A DNA stretch of 64,000 bases from an uncultured Acidobacteriota bacterium (GTDB lineage Bacteria; Acidobacteriota; UBA6911), in assembly GCA_963827655.1 (NCBI GenBank), contig CAWHCF010000001.1, positions 32,001-96,000 of the forward strand, written 5' to 3'. Shown here piece after piece: positions 49,478-59,130 of the stretch. A program made the position numbers and the translations under genes. The first letter of the stretch is position 1; each line of letters begins with the position of its first letter. A model generated the notes under the pieces. That model was not told the origin of the DNA. It did not search any database and worked only from the letters and a program-made list of their open reading frames with translations.

Positions 49478-50971
49478 ATGAACGGATATGACGTAGCTGT
49501 GATCGGGGGCGGTCCCGCGGGTTCGACCGCCGGTAGACTCCTGGCGGAATGGGGTTACTCGGTCGTCCTCTTCAACCGGCCTGAGAAAAGAAGGCCCAGT
49601 CTGGCCGAGTCCTTGCCGCCGAGCACCCGCAAGCTCTTTGGCTTTCTGGGCATTCTCCAGAGACTCGAGGACGCCCGCTTTTACCGGTCGAGTGGCAACA
49701 CGGTCTGGTGGGGCGATCCGGAGGGGAGTGTCGAACGATTCGGCGGGTCATCCCAATCCTGGGGTTACCAGGTACTGCGCAGCGATTTTGACCAGTTGCT
49801 CCTTGACCTGGCTGGATCCGCCGGAGTTCACGTGCGTCCCAACGCAACGGTCCTGAAAGTGAACCTGGAAGCCGACCACCGGGTTTCGATTCAATATGAC
49901 GATGCCGGGGACACGCGAGCCGCATGCGAGGCTCGATTCGTGCTCGATTGCTCGGGTCGCAGCGGCGTGATCGCGCGCCGCGGATTGCGCAAGAAAGAAG
50001 CTCGCTACAGCACACTCGCGATCGCCGCCGCGTGGCGCAATGAGACTGGTTGGGGACTGAAAGACGCAACTCACACTCTGGTCGAGGCCTATCCCGACGG
50101 CTGGGCCTGGTCAGTACCCCTCTCGGCGCAGCAACGCCACTTCACGGTCATGGTGGATCCGCAGCAGGTTCAGGCTTCACGAGGCCGCGGCCTGGAAGAG
50201 ATCTATTTTGATGAGATGGGAAAGACCGTCCAGTTCAAGACCATTCTCCGCGCTGCGACAACGGAGGGCGCTCCGTGGGGGTGTGACGCCTCGCTTTACT
50301 CTTCCGAGACGTTTGCCGGCCCGCAATTCATTCTGGTGGGAGACGCCGCCTCGTTTATCGATCCTCTTTCCTCGTTCGGCGTAAAGAAGGCCCTGGCATC
50401 AGCATGGATGGCCGCGGTCGTGGCAAACACTTGCTTCAAGAAACCGGCGCTACGGCAGATCGCACTCGACATGTTTTCCAATCGCGAGCGTCAAGTTTAT
50501 GCGAGTTATCTCCGGCAGAGCGCGCGCTATTTTCAGCAAGCTTCCATGCGCTATCCGACTCCATTCTGGATCGCTCGCGCCCAGGTTGCGGAAGGTTCGC
50601 AGGTCTGGGACCCTGACGAGGAGGAGCTCAAGCGCGATCCCGACGTCCTGGCCGCCTTCGCTGCTCTCAAGGGCAGCCGTGCCATTCGGCTGCAATGCGC
50701 ACCGGATGTGCGCGTGGAGAACAGGGCCGGCATCGAGGGAAACGAAGTGGTACTGAAAGAAAGCCTGGTCAGCCCGGGCCTGCCCTCCGGAGCTCGATTC
50801 CTGGGCGGCGTGGACCTCCCACGGCTGGTTGAAATAGCAGGAGAACACAGCCAGGTGCCGGATTTGTTTGCGGCCTACAATCGAATCTGCCCTCCGGTCG
50901 ACCTGGGAAACTTCCTCGGCACGCTTTCTGCTCTCCTGGCCAAGGGGATACTGAGGAACCTTCACCACTAA
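49478..50971 (+). CDS. qhpG: FAD-dependent monooxygenase for CTQ biogenesis
   Basis: GGGPAG, DCSGR, GWAW and GDAASFIDPLSSFGV motifs; directly upstream of qhpA. Confidence 0.8.
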   Translation: MNGYDVAVIGGGPAGSTAGRLLAEWGYSVVLFNRPEKRRPSLAESLPPSTRKLFGFLGILQRLEDARFYRSSGNTVWWGDPEGSVERFGGSSQSWGYQVLRSDFDQLLLDLAGSAGVHVRPNATVLKVNLEADHRVSIQYDDAGDTRAACEARFVLDCSGRSGVIARRGLRKKEARYSTLAIAAAWRNETGWGLKDATHTLVEAYPDGWAWSVPLSAQQRHFTVMVDPQQVQASRGRGLEEIYFDEMGKTVQFKTILRAATTEGAPWGCDASLYSSETFAGPQFILVGDAASFIDPLSSFGVKKALASAWMAAVVANTCFKKPALRQIALDMFSNRERQVYASYLRQSARYFQQASMRYPTPFWIARAQVAEGSQVWDPDEEELKRDPDVLAAFAALKGSRAIRLQCAPDVRVENRAGIEGNEVVLKESLVSPGLPSGARFLGGVDLPRLVEIAGEHSQVPDLFAAYNRICPPVDLGNFLGTLSALLAKGILRNLHH

Positions 50972-51023: not shown

Positions 51024-51169
51024 AGGCCCCTCGTGAACAACTACCTGTTGCTTTGAATGCTTCGCTGAGCGCCTAAGACACGCGAAGAGACTCAAATAGA
51101 CTCCAGGGTGCTGCTTATTGGATTGAATCGACCATAGCCTGTGTGCTACAAGTCAAGACGTTCCGTCTT

Positions 51170-52906
51170 ATGTCGAAAGCACAGTTTCTCGCCCGCCTGG
51201 TCTCTTTCTACTTTGTCGTTCTTTCACTTTTCGCTCAACAGCCGGCTCCACAACAGCCCAGTCCCGCCAGGGCCATCGAAGAGAAGCCCGAGGATGATGG
51301 AATTCCGATCACAAGCACGGTGGTCCGAACGGCGTGCGCCCCGTGCCACACGATCGATGATAAGAACCGCATGTCGCGCATCTCCTACCGGCGCACCACG
51401 CCCGAGGGATGGCAGGAAACCATCCGGCGGATGGTTTCTCTGAACAAGGTCGAGCTTACGCCCAAGGATGCCCGCGAGATTGTGAGATATCTCTCGAATC
51501 ATCTGGGTCTCGCACCTGAAGAAGCCCGCCCTGCTCTGTTTGAGGTCGAGCGGCGGATGATCGATTTCAAGTACACGGATCGGGACATCGAGCAAATCTG
51601 CGCCAGGTGTCATTCGCTGGGCCGGGTCATTTCGCAACGCCGCACCAAGGAGGAATGGGAACTCCTCATTGCCATGCACCGCGGGTACTATCCGCTCTCG
51701 GACTTTCAGGCATTCCGGCGCACGGGACCTCCTCAGACACAACCGGGACCGGACGGGCGCCCGCCGGATAACCGTCACCCCATGGAAAAAGCCGTGGCGC
51801 ATCTAGCAGAAGCTTTCCCGCTGAAGACCAACGAATGGTCGGCGTGGTCCGCCAACATGCGCGCGCCGAAGCTGGCGGGACGCTGGGCGCTCTCAGGCTA
51901 CCAGGTCGGACGTGGGGCGCTCTACGGGCAGATGGTGGTCACGACAAATCCGGAAGCGGAAGACGAGTTTGTGACCCAGGTTCGATATGCGTACGCGCGC
52001 TCCGGGAGTTCGGTCGAACGCGCGGGAAAAGCGCTGGTCTACACCGGATTCCAGTGGCGCGGCCGTTCGTTTGACGGCAAGGACGAGAAGAGCGGACTAC
52101 GCGAGGTGATGTTCGTCGAACGCGATTGGCAGCGGATGTCGGGGCGCTGGTTCACAGGCGCGTATGACGAACTGGGAACTGACATAAGACTGCAACGCAT
52201 AACCAACGATCCTATCGTTCTGGGTGTTGAACCGATCGCTTTAAAAACCTCGTCTTCCGCCAGGACGGTTCGAATTTTCGGCGCCAATTTTGCGGCCAAA
52301 CTCACGCCCGCCGACGTAAACTTCGGCCAGGGAGTTAGAGTCACCCGAATCGTCAGCGCCGATCCGGATAGTGTCTCGGTCGAGGTCGAAGTCGCAGCCG
52401 ACGCTCCCGTGGGCGCGCGGGATGTGTTCGTTTCCGGCGCCGCGCGCCATGCGGCTGTCGTCGTTTTCAACAAGACAGATGGAATCAAGGTTCGTCCACA
52501 GGCAGGGATGGCACGAGTAGGCGGCGCAAACTTTCCTAAACAATACCAGCAGTTCGAAGCGGTCGCTTACAACAATGGCGCCGATGGCAAGCCCGACACC
52601 AAAGACGATTTGGATCTTGGAATTGTCGATGTCGCCTGGAGCCTGGAGGAGTACACGGCGACATTTGGGGACGACGACAAAGAATTCGTGGGAACAATCG
52701 ACGCTTCGGGACTCTTCACGCCCAACATCGACGGTCCGAACCCCAAGCGCAAGAACCAGACCAACAACTACGGAGACGTCTGGGTCGTCGCCACGTTTAG
52801 CCCGGAAACAGGCGGCCAGTCAGCCAGACCCATCCGGGCTCGCGCCCACCTTCTCGTGACCGTTCCGGTCTACATGAGGTGGGAGCCCTCAGAGGTGACG
52901 CGATGA
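51170..52906 (+). CDS. qhpA: Quinohemoprotein amine dehydrogenase alpha subunit (diheme)
   Basis: CAPCH and CARCH, RIS..R.TPEGW...RM, QRRT.EEW.....H, YTGFQWRG, ARVGG, GLFTP...GPNP.R and LLVTV motifs. Confidence 0.95.
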   Translation: MSKAQFLARLVSFYFVVLSLFAQQPAPQQPSPARAIEEKPEDDGIPITSTVVRTACAPCHTIDDKNRMSRISYRRTTPEGWQETIRRMVSLNKVELTPKDAREIVRYLSNHLGLAPEEARPALFEVERRMIDFKYTDRDIEQICARCHSLGRVISQRRTKEEWELLIAMHRGYYPLSDFQAFRRTGPPQTQPGPDGRPPDNRHPMEKAVAHLAEAFPLKTNEWSAWSANMRAPKLAGRWALSGYQVGRGALYGQMVVTTNPEAEDEFVTQVRYAYARSGSSVERAGKALVYTGFQWRGRSFDGKDEKSGLREVMFVERDWQRMSGRWFTGAYDELGTDIRLQRITNDPIVLGVEPIALKTSSSARTVRIFGANFAAKLTPADVNFGQGVRVTRIVSADPDSVSVEVEVAADAPVGARDVFVSGAARHAAVVVFNKTDGIKVRPQAGMARVGGANFPKQYQQFEAVAYNNGADGKPDTKDDLDLGIVDVAWSLEEYTATFGDDDKEFVGTIDASGLFTPNIDGPNPKRKNQTNNYGDVWVVATFSPETGGQSARPIRARAHLLVTVPVYMRWEPSEVTR

Positions 52907-54339
52907 AGAAGCTTGGCCTGCGCGAGTTTCATCGATTTGAGGCGGCCGGTACGACCTTTCTTTACCTGGTTCCCAGCGCCGCGGTTCTTGCCCTCGACCA
53001 CGCCGCTTCGGCAGTCCTCGAGGCGCTGGGTCGCGGGCCGATGACACCCCAGCAGCTGATCAGCGAACTTTCCGGCCGTTTTTCACCCGCTGATCTCAAA
53101 GACACGATCTCGGAACTGATCGGCGTCCGCGCCATCGGTGACGTCGAGGCAAGCGAAAGCTCCAGTCCTCGAACCCTTCCACCGATGCCTTTCCCCCTGA
53201 CCACCATGGTTCTCAACCTGACCAACCAGTGCAATCTGAGCTGCACTTATTGTTACGAGTACGGCCAGGACAAGATCGTCGACACGAAGGACCCGAGACG
53301 GGCCCGTTTCATGACCGAGGAAACGGCGGCTCAGAGCGTCGATTTCATGCTCAAACAATCGGGTCCCAACAAGACTGTGCACCTGACATTCTTTGGCGGT
53401 GAAACCCTTCTGAATTTTCCCGTGCTGAAAGCTACCCTTGGGTATGCGCGCCGGCGCGCGGCGGAGATGGGAAAGGAAGTGGACTTCAGTCTCACGACCA
53501 ACGCCACGCTGCTGCGTCCGGAGACCATTGAATTCCTGGCGGAGAACCATGTCGGCGTCACCATTTCGATCGACGGGCCGAAGGAAGTCCAGGACCAGTT
53601 TCGCGTGTTCCACAATGGAGACGGAAGCTACGACATCATCGCGCCCAAGATTCGCGAGCTGCTGCGACGCCACCGCACTCGCCCTGTCGGCGCGCGCGTC
53701 ACGCTCACAGCCCAGACCCTCGACATCACCCGGATCTTCCGCCACCTGACCGACGAAATCGGCTTCTGGGAGGTGGGGTTTGCGCCGGTAACTACTTCGT
53801 CCAATCAGCAATACGCAATCAGCGACGCCGGCTTCGATCACATGCTCAACCAGTTCCGCTTGCTGGCTGCTGAATTCCTGGAATATTCGCTCCAGGATCG
53901 CCGGCACGGTTTCTCGAACGTCAAGGACACGCTCGAGGAGATCCACAAGGGACACAGCAAAGCCTACCCTTGTGGCGCCGGCCTGGGGCTGCTGGGCGTC
54001 TCCACCGACGGTGACGTCGCGCTTTGCCATCGCTTCGCCGCCTCGGATGCGCACAAGCTGGGAACCGTCCGAGACGGTATCGATTCGTTGGTGCAGATTG
54101 ATTTTCTCGAGAAAAACCATATCGCCAGCAAAACCGACTGCAGCAGGTGCTGGGCCCGGCCGCTCTGTTCCGGCGGTTGTTATCACGAAGCTTATGTGCG
54201 CTACGGCACGACCACACATCCTAATCTCCATTACTGTGAATGGATCCGCGGCTGGACCGACACATGCCTGCGCATCTATGGCGAGCTCGCGGAACGCAAT
54301 CCGAAATTCCTCGCGCAATTCGATGAGGGGGCGTCATGA
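52903..54339 (+). CDS. qhpD: Radical SAM/SPASM thioether-forming maturase
   Basis: CNLSCTYC, FFGGE, PCGAG, LCHRF and CSRCWARPLCSGGCYHE motifs; ATGA-coupled to both qhpA and qhpC. Confidence 0.95.
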   Translation: MKKLGLREFHRFEAAGTTFLYLVPSAAVLALDHAASAVLEALGRGPMTPQQLISELSGRFSPADLKDTISELIGVRAIGDVEASESSSPRTLPPMPFPLTTMVLNLTNQCNLSCTYCYEYGQDKIVDTKDPRRARFMTEETAAQSVDFMLKQSGPNKTVHLTFFGGETLLNFPVLKATLGYARRRAAEMGKEVDFSLTTNATLLRPETIEFLAENHVGVTISIDGPKEVQDQFRVFHNGDGSYDIIAPKIRELLRRHRTRPVGARVTLTAQTLDITRIFRHLTDEIGFWEVGFAPVTTSSNQQYAISDAGFDHMLNQFRLLAAEFLEYSLQDRRHGFSNVKDTLEEIHKGHSKAYPCGAGLGLLGVSTDGDVALCHRFAASDAHKLGTVRDGIDSLVQIDFLEKNHIASKTDCSRCWARPLCSGGCYHEAYVRYGTTTHPNLHYCEWIRGWTDTCLRIYGELAERNPKFLAQFDEGAS

Positions 54340-54710
54340 AGCATCTCAGGACCATTAACCGAAAGGCCGGACTCCTCGAGCAATACCTGGAGTCGTCATC
54401 GGCCCGCGAGAGTCAAACTGACGAGGCCGGCGGCGATGTCGTGGCTCTCCAGCAGGGACCACCACAGCAACCGCCAGGCCCTCACTTTCCGCTGGGCTGC
54501 TCTCTGCAATTCGATCCGGGCTGGGAAACAGATTCGAATGGCGGCACCGCCGGTCTATGCCAGCCTGTGGAACGGGACCTGTTTGACTGCCATACGGGTT
54601 GTTACTGGCCGGCACAAGTCCCTGATCAACTCAATCATGCGCCGGACTGGACCAGTAAATGCGCCGCCGCCCAGAAAGACTGGCGCAAGATCGATCTGAT
54701 TTTTCCGTAG
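54336..54710 (+). CDS. qhpC: Quinohemoprotein amine dehydrogenase gamma subunit precursor
   Basis: MKHL..IN.KA leader, DVVA, GC...FDPGWE, LCQP.E.DL..C...C.WPAQVPD and DWRK motifs. Confidence 0.95.
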   Translation: MKHLRTINRKAGLLEQYLESSSARESQTDEAGGDVVALQQGPPQQPPGPHFPLGCSLQFDPGWETDSNGGTAGLCQPVERDLFDCHTGCYWPAQVPDQLNHAPDWTSKCAAAQKDWRKIDLIFP

Positions 54711-54801
54711 GAAATTCGGTGACAGGCTCCAAATTGCGTGGCGAAAAACCAGTCTCTTGGTCCCTCTTAACCGCGCAATTTGGAGCCTGTCACCGAATTT
54801 C
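54711..54801. repeat. Perfect 28-bp inverted repeat (REP-like)
   Basis: GAAATTCGGTGACAGGCTCCAAATTGCG at 54711-54738 and its reverse complement at 54774-54801. Confidence 0.9.
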
Positions 54802-54849
54802 GCCCGGACCTGGCTGTTTTTCGACAAAAACTAAGCAGTCAAGACCGTC

Positions 54850-55956
54850 ATGAGATCCAGGATCGTACTCATCACTGCCGGATTGCTCTTACTTGGGGCG
54901 ACCCAGGGACAGGATCGCCGCGACGACCCCGCCCCGGGCAACGGCACACTTTATCTCGGCGTCTTCTCCAAGAAGATCGTGATTATCGACGAAGCCACGG
55001 GAGGGGTCACCGGCGAGATTCGGCTCAAGACCGGCATGCCCAGACAGATGTCGTTATCTCACGACCGAAAGCGGTTCTATGTAGTGAATGCGAACATGGA
55101 AGAGATGGAGGTCGTGGATATCTCTTCCAGGCAGGTGCTCGACACCTTCCGGATCGGTGAAGGCGACAAAAAGGTTCGCATTCGCAGCTTCCAGGTCGAT
55201 CCGCAGAATCGCTACATGATCCTTCTGACCAAAACCACGACCAAGCTCGCCGATCGATTTGAGATCGGCCCTCCGATGCTGCTCCAGTACGACCTCAAAG
55301 AGCACAGAGTTTTTCGAACCATACCGTGGCCCAAGAATGAGGAGCGCGAGTTTGCCAACCTGTTGTTCTCGCCTGACGGGAAATTCCTCTACTTCTTTTC
55401 CGATGATGTTCTGATATACGACACGACTGAATTCAAGCAGGTGGACAAGTGGGAGATTTCACGTCCGATCGAGGAGGGATTCGGGAGAATCAATTTTGGA
55501 CCGCTGGACATCATTAACGAAGAGCCGGGCTTCTTCACCGGACTGTTCACCGTCCAGGATCCGGTGCAAAACCGCCGCGTCATGGGAGTGGCGCGAGTCA
55601 ACCTGAGCGAAAAGAGCGTCGATTTCTACGCGCTCGGTCCCGCCACGCGCGTCAGCTTTTCCCTGGCGCCGGGGCGCAAACGGGCCTACGGTTTGATGGA
55701 ACAGGTCGGTCGTCACGAATTCTGGACCTTCGACCTGGAGAATCGCCGTCTGCAAGGCAAGACGGAGTTCGCGGGACGACCGCGTATGGAGTTGAAGACC
55801 AGCTCAAACGGCAGGATCCTTTACATCTATGAGGCTGGCAATACTATTGATCTCTACGACGCAGCCACGTACCGCCATCTTCGCACCATCGCTCTCGACG
55901 CGGACATGGCTACGGACCTCTACGTCATGCCCCCAGCCGGGAGCACCGGCAAGTAG
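54850..55956 (+). CDS. qhpB: Beta-propeller protein, probable QHNDH beta subunit
   Basis: Signal peptide and YVTN-like repeats (SPDGKFLY, NGRILYI..AGNTIDLYDA); position after qhpC as in qhpADCB. Confidence 0.82.
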   Translation: MRSRIVLITAGLLLLGATQGQDRRDDPAPGNGTLYLGVFSKKIVIIDEATGGVTGEIRLKTGMPRQMSLSHDRKRFYVVNANMEEMEVVDISSRQVLDTFRIGEGDKKVRIRSFQVDPQNRYMILLTKTTTKLADRFEIGPPMLLQYDLKEHRVFRTIPWPKNEEREFANLLFSPDGKFLYFFSDDVLIYDTTEFKQVDKWEISRPIEEGFGRINFGPLDIINEEPGFFTGLFTVQDPVQNRRVMGVARVNLSEKSVDFYALGPATRVSFSLAPGRKRAYGLMEQVGRHEFWTFDLENRRLQGKTEFAGRPRMELKTSSNGRILYIYEAGNTIDLYDAATYRHLRTIALDADMATDLYVMPPAGSTGK

Positions 55957-56089
55957 AGACCCATAGCACTGCTGTTCGCAATTGCGGTGTATGGGCAGTT
56001 GAGGCCTGAGAGGCCGACAGGGAGCGGGTCAATTACAGGCCGTCGCAAGTAACGTGATCCGGAGGATTTAGCCTTAAAGAGTTCTTTTC

Positions 56090-56230
<141 letters not shown>

Positions 56231-56484
56231 AAGCTTTTGTGCCACTAGGGGGCCGGACGGGCTTGATAGCCCGTCCGCACATGGATCGGTGGTTTTGCAA
56301 CAGCCTCGGATGGCCCGCGCCGCAGACCAATTTTTTCACACCTTCTGACCGGCGGGGCTACTCACTGCCGGGCCTTCGGCCCTGGCGACAAGCGAGCCGA
56401 CTCCTATCGTTCTGCCCAAACACGTTACTACCATCATTATGAACCAGCACCTGGCGTCTTCACTCCCTGGCGGTGGATTCTGAC

Positions 56485-58201
56485 ATGAGCCGTGTCCGTT
56501 TGATGGACCCGAACCTGCGCAAGGCGCTGGCGTACGTCTTTCCATATTGGCGCCGCCTGCTCCTGGTCCTGTCGCTGAGCGTGGTCAGCACCGCGCTGTC
56601 ACTCTACATTCCCTATCTTTCAAAAGGCCTCGTGGATCAGGCTCTTCTCGGCCGCGACGCAGCGGCGCTGCTTCGCATTGTACTGATGTTCACCGGGATA
56701 GCCTTGCTCAGCTTCGGGCTGAACCTTCTGAGCGGTCTCAGGTACACGCGAGTTTCGGCCGAGATTCTGTTCGATATGCGACTGGCGCTGTACCAGCACC
56801 TTCAGCGCCTGTCACCTCGATTCTACGCGCGCACGCGCCTCGGCGATATCGTCTCGCGCATCAACAATGATATCGGCGAAATCCAGCGCATTGCCGCGGA
56901 AACAGCGCTGGCCTGGGCGGGCAACGTGCTCTTTCTGGCCGGCACAATCACCATCATGCTATGGCTCGATGCTCGCCTTTTTTCCCTCAGTGTGGCGCTG
57001 CTGCCTTTCGGCATCTGGACTCTCAGGCGCTACCGCAACCGGCTCTCCGCAGCCGTGTCGATCCTGCGCCAGCGCAGCGCGGATATAGGAAGTTTTCTTA
57101 TCGAGACTCTTCAGGGGATGCGGTTGATTGTGACCTCCAATGCGCAGCAGCGGGAGGTTGCGCGCTTCAGAAGCAAGAACGACAGCTTCATCCAGGCGTT
57201 GATGTCGATGCAATTGTCCTCCTATCTGTCCGGCGGAATTCCGGGGCTGATCCTTTCGGGAAGCACCGTGCTCGTTTTCCTGTACGGCGGTCACAGGGTT
57301 ATCGAGGGAACCCTCACCATGGGAACTTTCGTAGCCTTCGTCGCTTACCAGATGCGGCTGCTCCCGCCCATCCAGGCGCTCATGGGACTCTACGCCAACC
57401 TCGCGACTGCCTCGGTATCGCTGCGCCGGATCCATGACATCCTCGACATCGCCCCGGAAGTGAGTGAACGCCCGGATGCCACCACTCTGCGCCAGGTGCG
57501 CGGCGATATCTGTTTCGAAAATGTCACGCTTTCTCACGACCGCGGGGCGCCGGCGCTCGAGAACATCAACTTTTCAGTGCGGAGCGGCGAGCTTCTGGCG
57601 CTGGTCGGCCCGAGTGGCAGCGGGAAATCCACCGTGGCGGATTTGCTCCTGCGCCTTCTTGATCCCGATTCGGGTGTGGTTCGGCTCGACGGGTACGACC
57701 TGCGCGAACGTCAGCCTCATGGATCTGCGCCGGCACATCGTGCTGGTGGACCAGGCGCCCTTTGTCTTCAACGCTTCGATCGCCGAAAATATCCGCTATG
57801 CGCGCCCCGAAGCATCCGACCCGGAGGTTGTCGAGGCCGCCCGCGCCGCCGGAATTGACCAGTTCATCCTCAGCCTGCCTGAGAAATATCAGACCCCAGT
57901 GGGAGAACGCGGCCTGGCTCTGTCGGCCGGCGAACGTCAGCGGATAGCGATTGCGCGCGCGTTCCTCGCCAACCCCGCGGTTCTGATCCTGGACGAGCCC
58001 ACCGCTGCGCTTGATCCGCTTTCAGAACGCCAGGTTGTGGCCGGATACGAGGCGATCATGCGAGGCCGCACGACCATCCTGATCTCGCATCGCCTGCAAC
58101 TGGCTTCCAGGGCAGATCGGATCGTGGTGCTGGCGGGCGCGAAGATCGCGGAACAAGGAAGGCCGCAGGATTTGCGGTACCTTGGCGCGTTCGTGTCATA
58201 A
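56485..58201 (+). CDS. qhpF: ABC exporter (permease plus ATPase) for QhpC; frameshift near 57708
   Basis: Six-TM domain and GPSGSGKST, then LSAGERQR, ILDE and ISHR in the second frame. Confidence 0.85.
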
Positions 58202-58202
58202 G

Positions 58203-58456
58203 GATTGACGATTTACGATTGACGATTGACGATTGGAGCTTGGTGATAGTTGTTCAAACTTCTTCAATAGCCGGATGCAATGATTGCGCAACCAGCACTT
58301 GACTTCTTTTGACAAACCGGGAGAGTGATTGACGATTTACGATTGACGATTGACGATTGGAGCTTGGTGATAGTTGTTCAAACTTCATTCAATAGCCGGA
58401 TGCAATGATTGCTGCAACCAGCACTTCGAACTTCTTTTCGGACAAAACCGGGAGAG
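58203..58456 (+). repeat. Tandem duplication of about 125 bp
   Basis: 58203-58326 versus 58327-58456; the copies differ almost only by 1-2 nt indels. Confidence 0.9.
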
Positions 58457-59130
58457 GGATCCGCATCGCCATCGTCGACAGCGGCATTCATGCTGCGCAC
58501 CCGCACGTAGGTGGTGTCGCCGGCGGCATCGGGATTTCTGAGGACGGAGACGAAACCGGCGATTTCCTGGACCGCCTGGGGCATGGAACTGCAGTCGCCG
58601 CGGCTATCCGCGAGAAGGCGCCGGAGGCCGAGCTCTACGCGATCAAAGTGTTCCAGCGCTCGCTCGTTACCAGCGTCGAGAGGCTGGTACAGGCAATCAA
58701 TTGGGCGGCGCGCCACGGCATGCAGCTGGTCAATCTGAGCCTCGGCACCGGCAAAACGGAGCATGAGACATCGCTACGGCCAGCGATCGATGCCGCGAGC
58801 CGATGCGGCACCCATCTGGTCGCCGCCTGCGAGAACTCCGGCGCGCGCTGGATGCCCGGTAGTCTGGACGGAGTCGTTCCGGTGGTGCTGGATTGGGATT
58901 GCCCGCGCGATGAGTATCGCGCCCGCGTGGCGAAAGATGGACGAACCATTTTTGGCGCCTCGGGGTACCCGCGCGACATTCCCGGAGTTTCACGCGAGCG
59001 CAATCTGAAAGGAATCAGTTTTGCGGTCGCGAATATGACCGGATTTGCGGCTCGGGCGCTGGAAGCCCATCCGGGCTCATCGCTCGAGGACCTGGTTCGG
59101 ATCCTGGGAAAATCAGGGACATCCCACTAG
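58405..59130 (+). CDS. qhpE: Short subtilisin-like S8 leader peptidase
   Basis: IVDSG, GHGT and GISFA catalytic triad; no signal peptide; lies within the qhp locus. Confidence 0.85.
   Translation: MIAATSTSNFFSDKTGRGIRIAIVDSGIHAAHPHVGGVAGGIGISEDGDETGDFLDRLGHGTAVAAAIREKAPEAELYAIKVFQRSLVTSVERLVQAINWAARHGMQLVNLSLGTGKTEHETSLRPAIDAASRCGTHLVAACENSGARWMPGSLDGVVPVVLDWDCPRDEYRARVAKDGRTIFGASGYPRDIPGVSRERNLKGISFAVANMTGFAARALEAHPGSSLEDLVRILGKSGTSH

Follow-up and report, generated by a model that had tools for sequence, protein, structure and literature searches.

The gamma subunit of quinohemoprotein amine dehydrogenase (QHNDH) encoded in the window, the 64,000-nucleotide stretch of Acidobacteriota DNA analyzed here, has a fifth cysteine, C109, that appears to be functionally constrained. 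The best single explanation for it, to which we assign a probability of roughly 0.42, would be a fourth intrapeptide thioether made by QhpD between C109 and D115. The candidate ring, C-A-A-A-Q-K-D, occupies positions 54660..54680 of the forward strand and was recognized by its spacing and conservation. Its bond would join the S-gamma of Cys109 to a methylene carbon of Asp115. Its installation would fall to QhpD, which makes the three known Cys-to-Asp/Glu bridges, and would take place in the cytoplasm ahead of leader removal by QhpE and export of the peptide by QhpF. A C-x5-D ring of this kind would have the size of the Cys27-Asp33 ring of the studied proteins and would pin down the C-terminal tail, which otherwise has no crosslink, just before the invariant DWR motif. 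The covalent link itself, the atom that accepts it, and the enzyme responsible are all inferred here from protein sequences and gene content.

The qhpC gene (54336..54710, forward strand, as are all genes of the operon) encodes a precursor of 124 amino acids, with a predicted leader of ~48 residues and a mature domain of ~76. Its ATG overlaps the stop codon of the upstream qhpD (ATGA). By its matches to PF08992 (115.7 bits, cut-off 25) and NF037958 QH_gamma (122.3 bits, cut-off 50), the product is the gamma subunit of QHNDH, and the N-terminal extension of ~48 residues that precedes the mature domain carries the conserved motifs MKHL..N.KA and DVVALQ. Judged by gene content, the operon is complete, in the order qhpG-A-D-C-B-F-E with qhpC inside it. 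It comprises qhpG (49478..50971), the flavin monooxygenase for CTQ biogenesis (NF049967, 252.9 bits, cut-off 240); qhpA (51143..52906), the dihaem alpha subunit; qhpD (52879..54339), the radical SAM/SPASM thioether-forming maturase (TIGR03906, 578.7 bits, cut-off 453; PF04055); qhpB (54850..55956), a divergent beta-propeller subunit; qhpF (56473..58201), the ABC exporter, present as two overlapping ORFs (56473..57858 and 57464..58201) with a one-base difference near 57710; and qhpE (58405..59130), the subtilisin-like leader peptidase (NF049966, 173.1 bits, cut-off 165). QhpD is a full equivalog of its family, and the PapB ranthipeptide maturase model NF047865 gives 284 bits, below its cut-off of 340. 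The operon is flanked by genes for DUF1579, M28 peptidases, a formamidase-like protein, an epimerase, an NMT1-like protein, and a GMC oxidoreductase. None of these flanking genes fits a second maturase or a thiol oxidoreductase, so an additional enzyme of either kind nearby was rejected, and QhpD is the sole such maturase there.

QhpB scored only 66.4 bits against TIGR03907, below the cut-off of 223, and gave no Pfam match at threshold over 54850-55956; a homolog of it adjoins qhpC in 80/80 related loci. This profile score sets the clade's beta subunit far apart from those studied so far.

A script count placed the five cysteines of QhpC at residues 55, 75, 85, 89, and 109. In a phmmer comparison, residues 53-124 aligned with residues 5-76 of 1jju_C and 1jmx_G, gap-free and with an offset of 48; E-values to the 1JJU/1PBY and 1JMX/1JMZ gamma chains were 1.6e-22 and 8.8e-22, respectively. 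The published QhpC pairs are Cys7-Glu16, Cys27-Asp33, Cys41-Asp49, and the CTQ pair Cys37-Trp43, according to PMC8172795 and PMC13692751. By alignment to the solved chains, these correspond on the forward strand to C55-E64 (ring 1, 54498..54527), C75-D81 (ring 2, 54558..54578, C-x5-D like the candidate ring), C89-D97 (ring 3, 54600..54626), and C85-W91 (54588..54608). The codons at 54660-54689 (TGC GCC GCC GCC CAG AAA GAC TGG CGC AAG) read C-A-A-A-Q-K-D-W-R-K, with C109 at 54660-54662 and D115 at 54678-54680. An earlier note on this DNA had counted five cysteines, had matched four of them to the established thioethers and the CTQ, and had placed C109 six residues before D115 at the same spacing as C75-D81; the count, the gap-free alignment, and the codons bear out each of these statements. 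Both solved chains have Asp67, in the D-W-R motif, at the position of D115, and Ala61 at the position of C109, so the fifth cysteine is in no solved structure.

C109 was retained in 121/121 rows of an alignment of the query with its 120 nearest matches (58-98% identical). In the same rows C75, C85, and C89 were each present in 121/121 and C55 in 120/121, and position 107 showed eight residue types. The motif C-x5-D-W was found in 80/80 genome loci examined, out of at least 599 matching stretches; almost all of these loci are titled Acidobacteriota (Vicinamibacterales, Bryobacteraceae, Blastocatellia, and Solibacteraceae) or Gemmatimonadota. With C109 kept throughout both sets, the cysteine cannot be ascribed to chance, and its conservation in the clade, which the earlier note had proposed to check, held. 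By comparison, the position was Cys in 0/120 classical proteobacterial-type proteins (the P0157 seed and its 119 best matches, the named members being Alpha-, Beta-, and Gammaproteobacteria), and 119/120 of these had exactly four cysteines. The residues found there instead were A (80), K (25), S (7), V (3), E (2), and N, Q, and I (1 each). A site that takes such replacements when Cys is absent looks tolerant and is probably exposed, so packing offers no explanation for an invariant cysteine.

A search with profile A2, which was built from divergent Cys-bearing sequences, added further lineages. The fifth cysteine was present in Terriglobales, Blastocatellia, Sporosarcina soli, and a Planococcaceae isolate (names according to the sources), and it was absent from Rhodovulum, Tropicimonas, Azoarcus, Sphingomonadales, and Competibacteraceae. 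The homologs named for S. soli and the Planococcaceae isolate (P0443 and P0462, Bacillota) have a stretch of the type C-P-A-A-V-R-D; QHNDH may thus extend to monoderm bacteria, and five-Cys hosts may be available in culture. Three relatives, each a single metagenome sequence, differed in other cysteines: P0185 lacks the CTQ cysteine, with Thr at the position of C85, and keeps the fifth, and P0258 and P0260 have a sixth at the position of residue 120.

All searches together gave 496 sequences. Of these, 96 were dropped as fragments or for a missing core, and the 400 that were kept have the C-x-W-x4-P-D core intact, followed by at least 22 residues. At positions 109 and 115, 214 of the 400 had Cys and Asp, 165 had Asp with no Cys, 5 had Gly with no Cys, and 16 were unreadable because of a frameshifted or truncated tail. 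A separate search of 50%-identity representatives, seeded with the five-Cys query, yielded 59 sequences that passed the core filter among the best 150 of 156 matches, and 15 of the 59 were unreadable; of the 44 clean representatives, 37 had Cys and Asp, and 7 had Asp without Cys. Within the limits of a search seeded in this way, five-Cys proteins outnumber those without the fifth cysteine in sequence space and are no rare oddity, and among the sequences collected here theirs is the form that dominates soil phyla. The Cys-bearing lineages span mature domains down to ~35-50% identity, and residues 107-108 and 110-114 vary freely among them. Across 43 Cys-bearing sequences with less than 80% mutual identity, the only constant residues were the Cys itself (by selection), D115, and W116.

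The state of position 109 changed at least 3 times on an unrooted FastTree phylogeny of 376 rows that included the trait columns, and 6 times on an unrooted IQ-TREE phylogeny of 77 diverse rows from which they had been removed. The latter was poorly resolved (65 usable columns; 7 of 74 inner branches starred). Dating of the gains and losses by tree was dropped because of the poor resolution and the lack of a root, and we make no claim from the trees as to which state is ancestral and which derived.

An acidic residue stood at +6 from the cysteine in 214/214 Cys-bearing sequences. This included 14 sequences with one extra residue between Cys and D-W, in which Glu stood at +6 in 14/14; these 14 form one clade (support 91) and therefore count as about one event. 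D115 was likewise kept where the cysteine was missing, in 165/170 Cys-less sequences of the pooled set and in 115/120 of the classical clade. D115 must therefore have another role; it did not co-vary specifically with C109, and its conservation in itself proves nothing about a bond. The five exceptions, P0290, P0293, P0367, P0369, and P0376, have Gly in place of the Asp of D-W-R, and all are Cys-less (5/170 versus 0/214; Fisher p = 0.016, uncorrected and ignoring phylogeny; two events on the tree). This difference weakly suggests an association between the Asp and the Cys. The spacing taken alone is weak evidence as well, since in the window peptide, by our own count, an Asp stands 6 to 9 positions farther on for about 12 of the 27 residues after D97.

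Other acceptors for C109 were considered and rejected. Position 120 varies among D, E, K, N, C, T, and Q, and variation is also seen at 104, 107, and 108. Across the Cys-bearing lineages, no conserved acid was found downstream of C109 other than D115 (or the +6 Glu of the insertion lineage), which is therefore the only general candidate if C109 is linked to an acid.

The partner subunits were searched for cysteines that could pair with C109. The four cysteines of the window QhpA (residues 65, 68, 153, and 156) all belong to the haem-binding motifs (two CXXCH), and QhpB has none. In related loci, among homologs with at least 85% coverage, QhpA had the four haem cysteines only in 54/67 cases, five in 9, six in 3, and seven in 1, and QhpB had none in 53/70, one in 11, two in 5, and four in 1. 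With no spare cysteine in alpha or beta, a conserved inter-subunit disulfide is excluded, and pairing of C109 with either of these subunits was rejected.

In a regular helix, the C-alpha distance from i to i+6 is ~10 Å by standard geometry (our own calculation), too long for a thioether; if residues 109-115 formed a regular helix, a C109-D115 thioether would therefore be excluded. AlphaFold2 models were of low confidence and did not agree on this region. For the full precursor (alignment A1, 49 rows), the mean pLDDT was 51.3 and a helix covered 105-114; for the mature domain (A3, 117 rows), it was 46.0, and coil at 109-111 separated a helix at 105-108 from one at 112-118. Because the models are poor and their helices conflict, we draw no geometric conclusion from them. 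In the classical clade, position 111 is S, N, D, or A, and position 110 is mostly Pro. This pattern resembles the N-cap region of a helix and points to a helix start near 112. From it, we infer that C109 lies just before the helix and D115 in its first turn, an arrangement that would neither forbid nor prove a link. QhpC is described in PMC7876137 as mostly coil with two short helices.

Several features of the data favor a thioether at C109. The cysteine is as strictly kept as the four crosslinked ones, and across phyla, and it is invariant at a tolerant site among varied neighbors. It has no partner cysteine in an exported protein. The acid at +6 is present in every Cys-bearing sequence, and Gly occurs at 115 only where the Cys is missing. 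The same peptide already contains a QhpD-made C-x5-D ring, QhpD is present, and there is no second maturase. Against a thioether counts the Ala-rich, helix-prone character of C-A-A-A-Q-K-D, which has no Pro or Gly, unlike the known rings. The loss of the cysteine in the proteobacterial clade without visible compensation also counts against it, as it indicates that the residue is dispensable for the fold. QhpD moreover leaves Cys37 free in the studied proteins, as stated in PMC7876137, so that it takes more than a Cys with an Asp after it for crosslinking to occur. The same paper reports that QhpG helps to bring the crosslinking to completion.

The closest rival is a free thiol at or just before the N-terminus of the short C-terminal helix, where the helix dipole would lower its pKa, kept for packing against alpha or beta or for a redox or binding role; we consider this a serious contender, somewhat short of an even chance. 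It would accommodate the conservation of D115 independently of the cysteine, the helix N-cap pattern at 110 and 111, and the helices at 105-114 or 112-118 in the low-confidence models. The mostly coiled fold with its two short helices, the one cysteine that QhpD leaves unlinked in the studied substrate, and the uncompensated absence of the cysteine from proteobacterial-type proteins are also consistent with a free thiol. The variety of replacements at this position in Cys-less relatives nevertheless argues against tight packing, and we know of no thiol function at this place in QHNDH. Lone, exposed cysteines in exported proteins are usually selected against, and exported proteins of Bacillota tend to exclude Cys. 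An invariant cysteine across Acidobacteriota, Gemmatimonadota, and Bacillota, although lone and probably exposed, is not what a free thiol would lead one to expect.

A link of C109 to some other partner appears unlikely. The partner could be another residue of QhpC, such as W105, W116, or the +6 Glu of the insertion lineage, or a disulfide could form with a second gamma chain or an outside protein. W116 is invariant and W105 nearly so, the CTQ of the same peptide is itself a Cys-to-Trp bond at i+6, and the further cysteine at 120 in two relatives would offer another thiol. However, some Cys-bearing sequences have Y or F instead of W105, the conserved acids after C109 come down to D115 or the +6 Glu, and alpha and beta have no free cysteine; QHNDH is moreover described as a heterotrimer in PMC7876137. 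About as doubtful is that C109 is a lineage marker without function, kept only through the close kinship of the sampled sequences. The small number of state changes on both trees would fit this, and most of the counts given above are phylogenetically dependent. Nevertheless, the cysteine is constant in the very lineages in which positions 107, 108, and 110-114 vary widely, and these lineages span several phyla, with identities that fall to ~35-50%.

We hold as plausible, without favoring it outright, a wider reading that extends the fourth thioether to the family. Most QhpC lineages (Acidobacteriota, Gemmatimonadota, Bacillota, and others) would then have four QhpD thioethers plus the CTQ. The three-thioether form of Paracoccus and Pseudomonas would be a derived one, a proteobacterial minority that lost the C-terminal staple, and QhpD would be a four-site protein maturase whose substrate range extends 67 residues into the mature peptide.

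For crosslinking by a radical SAM enzyme of a true enzyme subunit, and not of a small secreted peptide, QHNDH serves as the reference case. To our knowledge, its chemistry comes entirely from two proteobacterial four-Cys proteins. The gamma subunits of these, from Paracoccus denitrificans (1JJU, 1PBY) and Pseudomonas putida (1JMX, 1JMZ), belong to the same family as the window QhpC and share with it four cysteines, the Glu/Asp acceptors, the CTQ Trp, and DWR, and the operon partners qhpA, B, D, E, F, and G are the same. They differ in having four cysteines in all, with Ala at the C109 position, against five in the window QhpC. Unlike in the studied QHNDH, the window QhpB falls far below the TIGR03907 cut-off, and the QhpC leader is ~48 residues long compared with the 28 reported in PMC7876137.

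The Cys27-Asp33 ring of QhpC resembles the candidate ring in donor and acceptor types, C-x5-D spacing, peptide, and available enzyme. It differs in its sequence, C-Q-P-[MV]-E-[AR]-D with a Pro, and in its location at the active site, whereas the candidate ring, rich in Ala and with a putative bond, belongs to the C-terminal tail. Ranthipeptide maturases of the PapB/CteB type likewise make multiple Cys-to-Asp S-C-beta links, and QhpD matches the PapB model below cut-off. Their substrates, however, are secreted RiPPs with other ring sizes, whereas that of QhpD is an enzyme subunit. PapB makes six Cys-Asp thioethers in freyrasin according to the review PMC8172795, in which papB is presented as homologous to qhpD. 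A literature search found no description of a fifth cysteine or a fourth thioether in QhpC; the primary structural and QhpD papers and the supplements lay outside its reach, and an earlier remark is possible.

A crosslinked C109 would mean that the accepted description of QhpC, three thioethers plus the CTQ, leaves out a bond in most of the family; the fourth site of QhpD would then be simple to read out by mass spectrometry. With a free C109, a function would have to be found for a lone thiol that is strictly conserved in an exported quinoprotein. The question is directly testable in either case, and Sporosarcina soli and the Planococcaceae isolate may, to judge by their source names, be cultured five-Cys organisms.

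Contigs of related strains from public runs were compared with the window. Those of X1 and X2 span 54300 to ~54700, and that of X3 covers 54400-54716. The codons of the mature QhpC domain were unchanged in all three, and all listed qhpC differences fell in the leader, at 54341-54470. The RNA run X15 was rejected as evidence of expression, since it gave just a 69-base contig over 54636-54700 with 6 differences.

One base at 57710 was missing from contigs of X2 (DNA, 2 contigs) and X15 (RNA library, 1 contig), and the window qhpF therefore carries one extra base, through an assembly error or through a frameshift specific to the strain. The qhpF homologs of related loci are single ORFs of 569-617 amino acids.

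A 96-bp element (54710-54805) lies right after the qhpC stop and has perfect inverted arms of at least 24 nt (54715-54738 and 54774-54797). X1 and X2 contigs join 54709 to 54806, without the element; a mobile palindrome inserted here or a long terminator hairpin could account for it. In soil and rhizosphere runs, contig depths over two other segments, 56016-56411 in the gap between qhpB and qhpF and 58128-58250 after qhpF, summed to hundreds to thousands. Joints and loose ends were numerous there, and the segments look like widespread short repeats.
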